32,000 bases of DNA. Source: Candidatus Jordarchaeales archaeon. GTDB taxonomy: Archaea; Asgardarchaeota; Jordiarchaeia; Jordiarchaeales; Freyrarchaeaceae. The DNA lies in NCBI GenBank assembly GCA_038858525.1, contig JAWCFL010000005.1, positions 47,942-79,941 on the forward strand, read 5' to 3'. Of this stretch, positions 19,955 through 24,506 are shown one piece after another. Each line of letters starts with the position of its first letter. Position 1 is the stretch's first letter. Under the pieces are notes generated by a model. The model saw only the letters and a list, made by a program, of their open reading frames with translations, was not told where the DNA came from and did no database searches. Both the position numbers and the translations under genes were made by a program.

Positions 19955-21406
19955 TTGTCGGAGACCGATAAGACACCCCTGCCAAATAAATACGAAAATT
20001 TCAACGAATGGTATAATGAAATTCTACAGAAAGCTGAACTCATTGACTTGCGCTATGGGGTCAAGGGATTTATTGTTTATCGGCCGAACGCGGCTGTGAT
20101 AATGCGTCAAGTTTACCGCCTCTTTGAGGAGGAGCTGGACCGGCTGGGACATGCCCCCTGCATTTTCCCTGTCGTTATTCCGTTCGAGTTCTTTGAGAAG
20201 GAAGCCCAGCATATTAAGGGTTTTCTTGACGAGGTTTTTTGGGTTACGAAGGCGGGGCAGCACGAGCTCAACAAGCCGCTGTTACTGCGCCCGACGTCGG
20301 AGACAGCTATGTACCCTCTTTATGCGTTCTGGATTAGAAGCTACAAAGACCTCCCATTAAAGCTATACCAATCTAACTCGGTGTATCGCTACGAGACGAA
20401 AGCCACTAAGCCTCTCTTGAGGGGACGTGAGTTTTTCTGGATTGAGGCGCACTGCGCTCACAGGACGAAGGAAAATGCTGAACGTCAGGTGTTGGAAGAT
20501 ATGGAAGTTATGAGTAATGCGCTCCACGAGGTTCTAGGCGTCCCATTCCTGCTCTTAGAGCGCCCGCCTTGGGACAGGTTTGCAGGGGCTGAAAGAACCT
20601 ACGCGTTTGATGTGGTTTTTCCGGACAAGTCCGTGCTCCAGATAGCTACCACGCACATCCTTGGAGAAAACTTCTCCAGAGCTTTTGAAATAATGTACAA
20701 GGATGAGGATGGAGAACTTAAGTATGTTCAGCAGACATGCTTCGGTATAGGGATTTCGAGGATTCTCGCAACCCTGATAAGCGTTCACGGAGACGAATAC
20801 GGGCTGGTCCTACCCTTCGACATAGCTCCAACACAAATAGTCATAGTTCCCATACTGTTCAAAGAGGCCGGAGGAATTGTAATGGAGAAATGTAAAGCCA
20901 TCTTCGAGAAGCTATGCGAGAAAGGGTACAGAGTGATGCTGGACGACTCCGATGAGCGTCCAGGAGCCAAGTTTTACCGTTGGGAAACTTTAGGTGTTCC
21001 CGTGAGAATTGAAATAGGGCCAAGGGACGTCGAGAAGGGTGTAGTGACCGTTTTCAGGCGTGACACGAGAGAACGGATAGTTGTTAGGGAAAATGAGCTT
21101 GAAGAAAAAATAAAGGAGCTAAGAAAAGATATTCTAAGGGTTTTGAGAGAGCGGGGGGAGAAGTGGCTTGAAGCAAATTTGAGAGATGTCAAGAGTAAAG
21201 ATGATCTTATAATGCTGGCGAGGGAGGGCGGAATAGGTAGGATGGCTTTTTGCGGCAGGGAGGAGTGCGCCAGCGAGATAAAGGCGGAAACCGGCGGATT
21301 TGAGGTTAGAGGAGTCAGAGTGGGCGAAAAGTGGGAGAAATTAAGCGTTTGTGCTGCATGCGGAAAAGAAGCGAAAGAACTAGTGTACGTTGCTAAACCC
21401 TATTAA
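19955..21406 (+). CDS. proS: Prolyl-tRNA synthetase, archaeal/eukaryotic type
   Basis: LRPTSETAMY, RYETKATKPLLRGREF, anticodon domain GVPVRIEIGPRD, C-terminal AKPY. Confidence 0.96.
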   Translation: MSETDKTPLPNKYENFNEWYNEILQKAELIDLRYGVKGFIVYRPNAAVIMRQVYRLFEEELDRLGHAPCIFPVVIPFEFFEKEAQHIKGFLDEVFWVTKAGQHELNKPLLLRPTSETAMYPLYAFWIRSYKDLPLKLYQSNSVYRYETKATKPLLRGREFFWIEAHCAHRTKENAERQVLEDMEVMSNALHEVLGVPFLLLERPPWDRFAGAERTYAFDVVFPDKSVLQIATTHILGENFSRAFEIMYKDEDGELKYVQQTCFGIGISRILATLISVHGDEYGLVLPFDIAPTQIVIVPILFKEAGGIVMEKCKAIFEKLCEKGYRVMLDDSDERPGAKFYRWETLGVPVRIEIGPRDVEKGVVTVFRRDTRERIVVRENELEEKIKELRKDILRVLRERGEKWLEANLRDVKSKDDLIMLAREGGIGRMAFCGREECASEIKAETGGFEVRGVRVGEKWEKLSVCAACGKEAKELVYVAKPY

Positions 21407-21534: not shown

Positions 21535-22872
21535 TTGCTTTTCTTCGCAGACCTTCACATTCATAGCAAGTATAGTAGGGGTAGTAGCTCGAACATGGAG
21601 CCTCATGTTCTCCGTTCTTTCGCCAGAGTGAAGGGACTTAACTTGCTGGGGACGGGTGACTTCTCCCATCCTAAATGGCTTACTGAGTTAAAAGATAAGC
21701 TCGAAGCTGTTGGGGACACGGGGTTTTACACTTTAAGAGAGGGTGGGAGTGATGTTTTCTTCGTTTTGACGAACGAAGTAAGCACCAGCTTTGAATCTGA
21801 AGGCGAAACGAAAAACGTTCATCACCTCCTACTTGTTGAAAGCTTTGAGGTTGTGGACCAAGTGAACGAGATCATAGCGAAATATGGGAATTTAGATGCT
21901 GACGGCAGACCAATGCTTGGATGCACTCCCGCAGAGCTCGTTGAGTTGCTTCTGCAAGTTGACCGAAACATTCTCGTGGTGCCCGCTCACCTCTGGACGA
22001 GCTGGTTTGGAGCGCTGGGTGAGCGGGGATTTAACAGCTTGGAAGAATGCTACGGCGATATGGTAGACCATATTCATGCCGTTGAGACAGGTCTTAGCTC
22101 AGACCCACCAATGAACTGGAGGCTTAGTAGCCTTGACAGGTATGTCTTGTTGAGCAACAGTGACTCTCACAGTCCCTGGCCTTGGAGGCTGGGAAGAGAA
22201 GCGAACGTCTTCAACCTTGATGAACCATCGTTCCGCGACCTCGTTGATGCAGTGAAGAAAAAGGATAAACGAAGGATTGTTATGACCATAGAGGTCGCCC
22301 CCGAATACGGAATCCCCCAGTAGAGAGGGGACGTAAAATATCATTACGATGGTCATCGGGGTGACCGGCAGGGGCATGGTGGTGTAGATGTCTGCATGCA
22401 CCCAAAGGAAGCAATGATGCGAGGAAATATTTGTCCCGTATGTGGAAAGAAAATGACGATAGGAGTGCAGCACAGGGTTGAAGAGCTGGCTGATAGGGAG
22501 GAAGGCTTCGTGCCAGACAACCCTATACCATTCAAGAGGCTGATCCCCCTTTCCGAGTTAATAGCGTCAGCTTTAAGAGTTGAGAATCTCCATGCGCAAC
22601 GCGTCAGAGAAGAGTACGATCGACTCATCAACAAGTTCGGGAACGAGTATGCTGTTCTGCTTGATCCCCCCTTGGAGAGCCTCCTAGAAGTTACTCATCA
22701 AAGAGTGGCTGAGCTTATAATACTTAACAGGGAGGGGCGCCTCAAAATAAAGCCGGGGTTTGACGGAGTATATGGAAAAATATCTTTTGATGAGCCTCAA
22801 GAGAAAGCTGTAGGTGTAGAGAGCCTTCCAAGAGTTGGGCAGCAGAGCCTTGATAGCTACTTTAAACGGTGA
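21535..22872 (+). CDS. Endonuclease Q family (PHP domain plus Zn finger) protein, interrupted by a 24-nt insert; 437 aa if the insert is removed
   Basis: ADLHIHSKYS, GTGDFSHP, ETGLSSDP, SNSDSHS, LGREAN, then EYG[insert]KYHYDGH, CPVCG, GVQHRVEELADR, PGFDGVYG. Both track ORFs (21535-22323 and 22396-22872) are in the same frame. Confidence 0.85.
22313..22336 (+). other. Candidate bulge-helix-bulge intron in the EndoQ-family mRNA
   Basis: Insert TCCCCCAGTAGAGAGGGGACGTAA carries the in-frame TAG and a CCCC/GGGG stem, with BHB geometry at the junctions. Removing it gives GAA TAC GGA AAA TAT CAT (EYGKYH). Confidence 0.7.
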
Positions 22873-22883
22873 CTTGTCTTTCC

Positions 22884-23915
22884 TTAGCATACACGGGGGA
22901 TAGGTTCGCCGTATGGCTCTTCTATTATTCGTTTTCCCCCGACGACTGTTTCCATTATGACGTATCCTGGTCTCTCCTTTCGAACCTCTCCTATAATGCT
23001 GGCGTTTCTACCATACTTTGTTGCTTTAACCTTTTCGAGGACCTCCTCCGCTCTTTCAGGTCTTACCGCTATTATCGCTTTTCCCTCACAGGTTACCTCG
23101 AGCGGGTCTATTCCAAGCATTTCTGATGCTGCAACTACTTCCTCCCGGATAGGTATGTCCTCCTCTTTGATCCATATGCTGACTCCATTTTTCTTAGCCC
23201 AGTCGTTTAGGGCTGCAGCGAGTCCTCCTCTTGTCGGATCCTTCATTGCCGTTACGCCGCCGACGCTTAAGGCTGCTTTGATCGTCTCATTGAGGGGAGC
23301 AACATCCGACTCCAGTTGTGTCCCGAAACTTATACCTTCTCGCGCGGCGAGGAGCGCTATTCCATGGTCGCCTACGGTTCCCGTAACTATTACCTTGTCG
23401 CCAACCTGTATGCCGCTATCGCAAATTACCTTTCCTTTGGCAATCCCGATCCCTGTGGTAGCCAGAACAATCTTGTCGAGGTGTCCTTTTGGCATCACCT
23501 TCGTGTCTCCTGCGATCAGGGCGACCCCGGCTTCGTTACACGTGTCGCTTATAGACCTAACTATCCGCTTCAAATCAGCTATGGGGAACCCTTCCTCCAA
23601 TATCATGGAGCACGTCACGGCTATAGGGTCTGCTCCCATCATAAGAACGTCGTTAACTGTACCCGAAATGGCAAGCCGTCCAAGGTCGCCTCCTGGGAAG
23701 AATATTGGATCTACAGTGTGTCCATCCGTGGTCACAACAATGTTATAGCCCCCTAAAGGTATAGTTGCTCCATCGTCTAGCTCGTCCAGCCCTATTCCCC
23801 CGCCAACCCTTCGCCTATCGATCAATGGAAGGATGACCTCCTTGATCAGCTTCCCCATGGCAGTTCCACCCGCTCCATGAGCTAGCTCAATGACCTCTTG
23901 AAGCTCCGTCGCCAT
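22884..23915 (-). CDS. hypE: Hydrogenase maturation carbamoyl dehydratase HypE
   Basis: LAHGAGG, TTDGHTVDPIFFPGGDLG, AGDTKV, MKDPTRGGL and C-terminal PRVC. Start placed at ATG 23915. Confidence 0.95.
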   Translation of the reverse strand: MATELQEVIELAHGAGGTAMGKLIKEVILPLIDRRRVGGGIGLDELDDGATIPLGGYNIVVTTDGHTVDPIFFPGGDLGRLAISGTVNDVLMMGADPIAVTCSMILEEGFPIADLKRIVRSISDTCNEAGVALIAGDTKVMPKGHLDKIVLATTGIGIAKGKVICDSGIQVGDKVIVTGTVGDHGIALLAAREGISFGTQLESDVAPLNETIKAALSVGGVTAMKDPTRGGLAAALNDWAKKNGVSIWIKEEDIPIREEVVAASEMLGIDPLEVTCEGKAIIAVRPERAEEVLEKVKATKYGRNASIIGEVRKERPGYVIMETVVGGKRIIEEPYGEPIPRVC

Positions 23916-24113
23916 CACCCCCTGCAACATACATCTAATTTGGCTCAAAAAATGTTTCCGCTCATCGAATAATGAACCTCAAAGTCACCGGTACGCGTCG
24001 CTTGCCTGCCGCTTGTTGGATGCTTAAAGCTGAGCTCTTCTAGTGTTTCATGTCCGATGGATTTATATCTCCTTTTCATGTTTTTTCTTTCTGAATTTTG
24101 CGGAGGATCCAAT

Positions 24114-24506
24114 ATGGGTGTATGGCATGGTAAGTCTAAGAGGAAGCCTAGTGGCGGCAAGCTCGGAATAGCTCGGGGTAAGAGAAAGTATGAGATGGGT
24201 CGCGAGCCCATCGAGACACAGCTTGGAGACGAAGAGAAAAGAAAGAAGGTTCGAGTGCGTGGCGGAAACCTGAAAATCAAGTTGCGGGTTGCATCATATG
24301 CAAATGTAACAGATGTCACTACGGGAAAAACTGTTAAAGTTAAGATCCTCGGTGTGGAGAAGAACCCGGCTAGTGTAGACTATTCACGTCGCAAAATAAT
24401 AACGAAAGGCGCCATTATAAAGACAGAGCTGGGGACGGCGCAAGTCACAAGCAGACCGGGCCAAGACGGAGTGGTAAACGCTGTATTAATAGAACAAAAA
24501 CAGTAA
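24114..24506 (+). CDS. rps8e: Ribosomal protein eS8
   Basis: [47 protein letters not shown] 24114 follows GGAGG. Confidence 0.95.

Follow-up and report, generated by a model that had tools for sequence, protein, structure and literature searches.

In the literature that we found, bulge-helix-bulge (BHB) introns within protein-coding genes of archaea rest on one confirmed gene, cbf5 of the Crenarchaeota, which carries a short pre-mRNA intron (Watanabe 2002; Yoshinari 2006; Yokobori 2009, PMC2738675), together with one case in a 5' untranslated region (UTR), that of HVO_1309 in Haloferax volcanii, in the description of which cbf5 is named as the only other mRNA case (Schwarz et al. 2020, PMC7714728). 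For other protein genes of archaea there were, as of 2009, predictions of introns that awaited confirmation (PMC2738675). The tRNA genes of three lineages, Jordarchaeia, Freyarchaeia and Atabeyarchaeia, are exceptionally intron-rich and average more than two intervening sequences per gene (PMC11291895; bioRxiv 10.64898/2026.10.13.758758). Both of these papers concern tRNA genes only and report no mRNA introns (the preprint has 0 occurrences of 'mRNA'), and a literature search for mRNA introns in Asgard archaea, Jordarchaeia, Freyarchaeia and Atabeyarchaeia returned only reports of tRNA introns. Here we describe a gene of the endonuclease Q (EndoQ) family in a 32-kb stretch of DNA (the window) from an Asgard archaeon of the class Jordarchaeia, genus Ca. 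Jordarchaeum, recovered from a hot-spring metagenome. The gene is broken by 24 nucleotides (nt) that contain an in-frame stop codon, which an earlier note made from the sequence alone had read as a BHB intron in the mRNA of a gene other than cbf5. Conservation of the insert, covariation of its helices, selection on both exons and the presence of the splicing enzyme genes bear out this proposal, and it is very probable that the insert is removed from EndoQ mRNA by splicing. BHB introns in mRNA are already known as a kind; what is new is the host gene, the phylum and the conservation at class level.

The locus comprises two open reading frames (ORFs) on the forward strand, 21535..22323 and 22396..22872, which are called as genes of 262 and 158 amino acids (aa). 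As had been claimed, they share one frame, and translation reveals a single gene of 445 codons (21535-22872) whose sole break is the TAG at 22321-22323; the stop codon lies at 22870-22872, and the assignment of the TTG at 21535 as start codon is tentative. The read-through protein matches TIGR00375 over profile positions 2-374 of 374 (E 7e-54), with a score of 183.6 bits that is below the curated cut-off of 326.6, and EndoQ of P. furiosus (PDB 5zb8) from residues 3-425 against positions 3-389 of the chain (HMMER, E 3.7e-55). The latter match includes the motifs DLHIHS, SNSDSHSP and GKYH and the CPxCG zinc-finger. In Pfam, neither of the halves nor the read-through protein has a matching family. 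This full-length similarity, including the PHP metal-binding motifs and the zinc finger, places the predicted product in the endonuclease Q family, and by homology the Jordarchaeia enzyme would be expected to incise 5' of deaminated bases.

The P. furiosus gene (PDB 5zb8, 7k30-7k33) is uninterrupted, and in its alignment with the Jordarchaeia protein a single clean indel marks the break, an insert of eight residues, IPQ*RGDV (24 nt), between the G and KYH of EYG-KYH. This agrees with the excision that had been proposed from the predicted cuts, since removal of 22313-22336 gives GAA TAC GGA AAA TAT CAT and restores EYGKYH. The conserved sequence KYHYDGHR runs straight on from the junction, and the first in-frame start codon downstream is the ATG at 22396, 20 codons further on. 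A spliced message would thus encode 437 aa, whereas an unspliced one yields only a PHP fragment of 262 aa. The inserted DNA itself is real and is no assembly artefact: eight sequencing runs from four studies contain every one of the 131 31-mers sampled from the gene, and DNA contigs from four runs, again of four studies, span at least 22293-22356 and agree with it throughout (0 differences, 0 gaps, no joint that lacks the intron).

Among species-representative genomes, all 11 of the class Jordarchaeia (the window's own, three congeners, one from another genus of the family and six Freyarchaeia) have EndoQ broken at the identical codon, as do three metagenome contigs (L069, L070 and L080), giving 14 intron-bearing sequences in total. 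The length of the insert varies. It is 24 nt in the window but 29 nt in its three congeners; two Freyarchaeia have 32 nt, and most Freyarchaeia share a length of 28 nt with the second genus. The frame of exon 2 relative to exon 1 follows this length and differs in most species, so that unspliced messages are frameshifted in most of them. Despite these lengths of 24-32 nt, a single cut rule (after the second nucleotide of each bulge) leaves TAY GGA AAA TAY CAY in 14/14 sequences and an in-frame EYGKYH or AYGKYH motif in every one. KYH[YF]DGHR directly follows the insert throughout, with no start codon ahead of it. By comparison, 33 distinct homologues from other Asgard archaea, other archaea and bacteria have an uninterrupted GKY[HYF], and other Asgard genomes with EndoQ carry the gene uninterrupted across the intron site. 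A single gain of the intron on the stem of the class is the most likely origin.

The RNA of this region can adopt a BHB geometry, with two 3-nt bulges on opposite strands, a central helix of four pairs between them and flanking helices (Table 1), and every pair, bulge and stem position that had been put forward, including the UAG in the loop, is present in the sequence. In the window the central helix H consists of A22307:U22334, C22308:G22333, G22309:C22332 and a mismatch, G22310.A22331; across the 14 sequences the four positions are AU in 14, CG in 10 and UA in four (a compensatory change), GC in 14, and GC in 10 and G.A in four, the last being confined to the window and its three congeners. 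The CG to UA exchange reflects a synonymous TAC>TAT change in exon 1, and the intron mirrors it with G>A. In the other two genera, all 10 sequences have a perfect helix, ACGG:CCGU or AUGG:CCAU, between AAA and AAA bulges. The outer helix h (A22305:U22339 and U22306:A22338) is UA in 14/14 at its second position and AU in nine, GU in three and unpaired in two at its first, while the intron hairpin h' has 4-6 base pairs (bp), with changes on both sides in four of the six pairs.

An alignment (A1) of the 14 sequences, which takes in 30 nt from either exon, was scored against these three helices, a structure of 12 pairs. Standard pairs occupy 91.6% of its cells; sliding the 3' partners by 1-3 columns lowers this to 21-42%. 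Double-sided changes occur in five pairs, and neither the covariation score nor the percentage of paired cells was reached by any of 500 shuffles. RNAalifold, run on the alignment with no structure given, recovers both the central helix and the intron hairpin.

RNAalifold also predicts a distal helix of 13 bp between the exons, which is shared across the class. Of its 13 positions, 10-13 are complementary in the 14 sequences with the intron and 5-10 in the 33 intronless homologues, with mean duplex energies of -18.4 and -7.1 kcal/mol, respectively, and the intronless homologues encode much the same amino acids over this region. This suggests that the helix is a clamp that would hold the exons together and present the BHB motif, although the reading is suggestive and not proven because the intron-bearing sequences form one clade. 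The earlier note had placed an exon-exon helix elsewhere, between 22293-22304 and 22356-22366. That GC-rich helix does appear in the minimum free energy (MFE) fold of the window, but it is genus-specific, is not recovered in the class consensus fold of RNAalifold and is mutually exclusive with the class-wide clamp. The MFE fold also pairs the 3' end of the intron, CGUAA (22332-36), with UUACG in exon 2 (22344-48); UACG is present in both exons, so a hairpin within 22332-22348 competes with the central helix of the BHB.

Purifying selection acts on both exons. Comparison of the window with its two closest congeners gives ratios of nonsynonymous to synonymous substitution rates (dN/dS) of 0.05 for exon 1 and 0.10-0.12 for exon 2 (dS ~0.75-1.5), and neither exon contains further stops in the species of the class. 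These values leave little room for a decaying pseudogene disabled by the insertion of 24 nt, an extremely unlikely reading even though the TAG falls within a conserved motif and the whole protein scores under the TIGR00375 cut-off, as the break is kept at one codon in 11/11 species and pairing within the insert is maintained by compensatory changes. Only marginally less improbable is a split gene, in which a PHP polypeptide of 262 aa and a C-terminal part initiated at ATG 22396 would assemble without any joining of RNA. There are indeed two callable ORFs, with that ATG 24 codons past the TAG; however, the 20 codons from the intron to the ATG (KYHYDGHRGDRQGH..VDVC) hold the family motif with no start codon ahead of it and are conserved as protein across species with synonymous changes, and a simple intergenic spacer has no need of covariation in BHB geometry. 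Recoding could take the form of read-through of the TAG, for example as pyrrolysine, or of a ribosomal bypass of the 24 nt like that in gene 60 of phage T4, and the window's insert, which is in frame with a single TAG and follows a potential GGA take-off codon like that of gene 60, is compatible with either. Read-through is nevertheless contradicted by the orthologous inserts of 28, 29 and 32 nt, which shift the frame, and by the absence of the eight inserted residues from all homologues; PylS was not found in the genome (best PylS_Cterm match 32.5 bits against a cut-off of 178), and for bypass there is no GGA landing codon directly ahead of AAA UAU, the preceding codon being GUA, or RUA in relatives. 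We consider recoding as improbable as the pseudogene. Conservation at one codon, variable insert lengths and exon selection together exclude the pseudogene, read-through and two-polypeptide readings, the lack of a landing codon excludes bypass, and a BHB intron is the only interpretation that fits the comparative data.

Several observations nonetheless weigh against splicing of a BHB intron at this site. No RNA run was found that carries the window's EndoQ or the Freyarchaeia orthologue L034, the metatranscriptome runs of the wetland studies contain next to none of the sequence of that orthologue, and cutting and ligation in vivo are what we infer from the DNA. The 14 sequences form one clade, so that counts of compensatory cells exceed the number of independent events. 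The local fold of the single sequence is unremarkable (MFE -31.8 kcal/mol, z = -1.70, 14/200 shuffles as good), and its significance comes from the comparative data and not from single-sequence energy. Helix h has only 2 bp, which brings the motif nearer to the relaxed HBh' form, and in the window's genus the G.A mismatch of the central helix adjoins the 5' bulge. More specifically, this genus has a competing register, termed M, shifted by one nucleotide, in which H = UACG:CGUA is flanked by bulges GA|A and AA|A and the intron stem is longer by U22313:A22331. Register M is fully canonical (all four genus-level sequences form a perfect hBHBh') and by nearest-neighbour energies is ~2.5 kcal/mol more stable than the productive register, yet its cuts would take out 26 nt (22312-22337) and frameshift the message, which would run into a stop after ~11 codons.

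If messages of this genus were spliced via register M, the product would be truncated and EndoQ output would be low or regulated by the choice of register. Some weight is lent to this by two changes specific to the genus, A>U at 22313 and C>A at 22331, which jointly make the additional pair. It is still a quite unlikely account, less so than the three readings above, given that exon 2 is under purifying selection within the genus in the frame that only removal of 24 or 29 nt gives, which implies at least sufficiently frequent use of the productive register. For 8 of the 10 sequences of the other two genera the energies favour the productive register, by ~3.7-4.0 kcal/mol, and in the remaining two (G006 and mg_L080) the alternative is slightly favoured, by ~1.8 kcal/mol. 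The two registers predict different junctions, UACGGAAAAUAU (longer form TACGGAAAATATCAT) for the productive one and UACGGAAUAU (longer form TACGGAATATCAT) for register M, and they make the window's genus a testable case of site choice by EndA.

The genome encodes the enzymes that splicing of the EndoQ intron in the productive register would require. Two EndA paralogues, alpha (191 aa, with a catalytic Tyr-His-Lys context) and beta (198 aa, without the His), are encoded at C3:81514-82089(-) and C43:5666-6262(+) and each match the N- and C-terminal endonuclease domains PF01974 and PF02778, and RtcB is present with a match of 601 bits; an (alpha-beta)2 EndA has been reported for Asgard and TACK archaea and tied to a broad substrate range (PMC5829648). 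We posit that in the pre-mRNA ACGG of exon 1 would pair with ACGU of the intron to form the four-position central helix, with three Watson-Crick pairs and G.A in the window's genus and four Watson-Crick pairs in other genera, while the bulges AA|U and AA|A, the intron hairpin and the 2-bp outer helix flank it and the distal exon-exon helix holds the exons. Heterotetrameric (alpha-beta)2 EndA would then cut after the second nucleotide of each bulge and RtcB would ligate the exons to GAA UAC GGA AAA UAU CAU, which would encode EYGKYH within the full-length enzyme of 437 aa; the 24-nt intron would be released, probably as a circle.

EndoQ is not the only protein gene of this genome with such an insert. 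The genes for EF-2 and cbf5 each carry one whose canonical excision restores a universally conserved motif (Table 1). The cbf5 insert contains an in-frame TGA and an intron stem of 10 bp, has H = CACU:GGUG between bulges AG|A and AA|A, and splits the codon of the catalytic Asp (GTL-D-PKV) between letters 1 and 2. It lies at the same position as the crenarchaeal cbf5 intron (PMC2738675), which hints at either a very ancient origin or preferred insertion sites. EF-2 is uninterrupted in the complete Freyarchaeia genome G006, so the EF-2 intron is more narrowly distributed than that of EndoQ. A wider search, which the earlier note had suggested, succeeded only in part. De novo scanning of the genome for BHB excisions that merge long frames gave ~1,680 hits with true cuts and ~1,680 with shifted cuts, dominated by chance motifs at same-strand gene boundaries, whereas a strict subset (4/4 central pairs, intron stem of at least 6 bp, A-rich bulges, at most 45 nt) gave 7 hits against ~1 in each shifted-cut control. 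Five further inserts of high quality and 24-31 nt lie at C1:145116-145146(-), C2:6357-6386(+), C2:68773-68802(+), C3:105835-105865(+) and C13:45688-45711(+); excision at these candidate sites joins long frames, as in GQTISAPHM|CVLM of an isoaspartyl-methyltransferase-like protein and in NATSDVYAKGA.

Another Asgard family, probably Atabeyarchaeia, has a different BHB intron in EndoQ, present in two complete genomes of 2.8 Mb (L011 in G021 and L012 in G031, reverse strand). This intron follows LLGTGD and is 54 and 41 nt long, respectively, and canonical cuts restore GTGDFT.PRWL. The same gene would seem to have gained an intron independently here.

In Jordarchaeia, BHB introns would have moved from tRNA genes into several genes that encode proteins, EndoQ among them. 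The earlier note had concluded that repair of deaminated bases would depend on the tRNA splicing machinery; this holds trivially if the message is spliced, but no regulatory or adaptive coupling is needed, as similar introns occur elsewhere in the genome. Neutral spread is a simpler reading than regulation of repair by splicing, and we prefer it because the same genome has such introns in EF-2 and cbf5 as well as further candidates. On balance we lean towards a broader view, in which BHB introns have spread into many protein genes in Jordarchaeia and, independently, in an Atabeyarchaeia-like family, mRNA splicing by EndA and RtcB is routine, and the EndoQ intron is as old as the stem of the class, its exons having co-evolved the 13-bp clamp.

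Compared with the described systems, the EndoQ intron is closest to that of crenarchaeal cbf5. Both are short introns in protein-coding sequence with a BHB or relaxed BHB motif, predicted cuts between bulge residues 2 and 3 and hosts with a hetero-oligomeric EndA, and both are conserved across orders with a lineage-specific distribution. Unlike cbf5, EndoQ is a DNA repair gene of the phylum Asgard, with an intron of 24-32 nt and a distal helix of 13 bp between its exons; for cbf5, cDNA and cleavage in vitro demonstrated splicing, whereas that of EndoQ is predicted here. The HVO_1309 intron is likewise a substrate of EndA in mRNA, but it sits in an untranslated leader where no codons are broken, in a euryarchaeal host with a homodimeric alpha'2 EndA. 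With the tRNA introns of Jordarchaeia, Freyarchaeia and Atabeyarchaeia the EndoQ intron shares its lineages, its BHB architecture and presumably the same EndA and RtcB, and it differs in that its host is an open reading frame that constrains its position. If the EndoQ reading is correct, the closest prokaryotic relatives of eukaryotes interrupt protein genes and express them via tRNA-splicing enzymes, and the EF-2 and cbf5 inserts of the same genome, together with the EndoQ intron of a second family, point towards mRNA splicing in Asgard archaea. Gene callers split or truncate genes with such introns, and annotations and metabolic reconstructions of these lineages would therefore be systematically wrong at such loci.

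Table 1. Features of the EndoQ locus (positions in the window) and BHB inserts in two other genes of the same genome (contig positions); A1 is the alignment of the 14 intron-bearing sequences.
Feature	Coordinates	Strand	Length	Details
EndoQ exon 1, PHP-domain part	21535..22312	+		ends GAA TAC GGA A, after second nt of 5' bulge
BHB intron (predicted)	22313..22336	+	24 nt	in-frame TAG 22321-22323 in hairpin loop
EndoQ exon 2, zinc-finger and C-terminal part	22337..22872	+		starts AA TAT CAT (finishes K, then YH)
Distal clamp helix, 5' strand	22283..22295	+		pairs with 22343-22355; RNAalifold columns 1-13 with 69-81
Distal clamp helix, 3' strand	22343..22355	+		RNAalifold, complementarity counts
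Alternative GC-rich exon-exon helix, genus-specific	22293..22304 with 22356-22366	+		MFE fold of window
Outer helix h, 5' strand (AU)	22305..22306	+		pairs with A22338, U22339; A1 columns 23-24 with 64-65
Central helix H, 5' strand (ACGG, exon 1)	22307..22310	+		pairs with 22331-22334; A1 columns 25-28 with 57-60
Central helix H, 3' strand (ACGU, intron)	22331..22334	+		covariation, RNAalifold
5' bulge AA|U	22311..22313	+		predicted cut after 22312
3' bulge AA|A	22335..22337	+		predicted cut after 22336
Intron hairpin h'	22314..22330	+		stem C22314-17:G22327-30, 9-nt loop with UAG; A1 columns 32-37 with 51-56
EF-2 BHB insert	C4:81118-81146 (loci L088/L089)		29 nt	canonical excision restores DTPGHVDF
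cbf5 BHB insert	C1:177182-177211 (locus L062)		30 nt	canonical excision restores GHAGTLDPKVTG (GTLDPKVTG)

ARAGORN finds no tRNA gene within the window. By their sequence features the neighbours of EndoQ appear to be ordinary housekeeping genes, with an ORF resembling an archaeal-type prolyl-tRNA synthetase upstream (19955-21406) and, downstream, a HypE/PurM-like gene on the reverse strand (22884-23948(-)) and a gene similar to that of ribosomal protein S8e (24057-24506).

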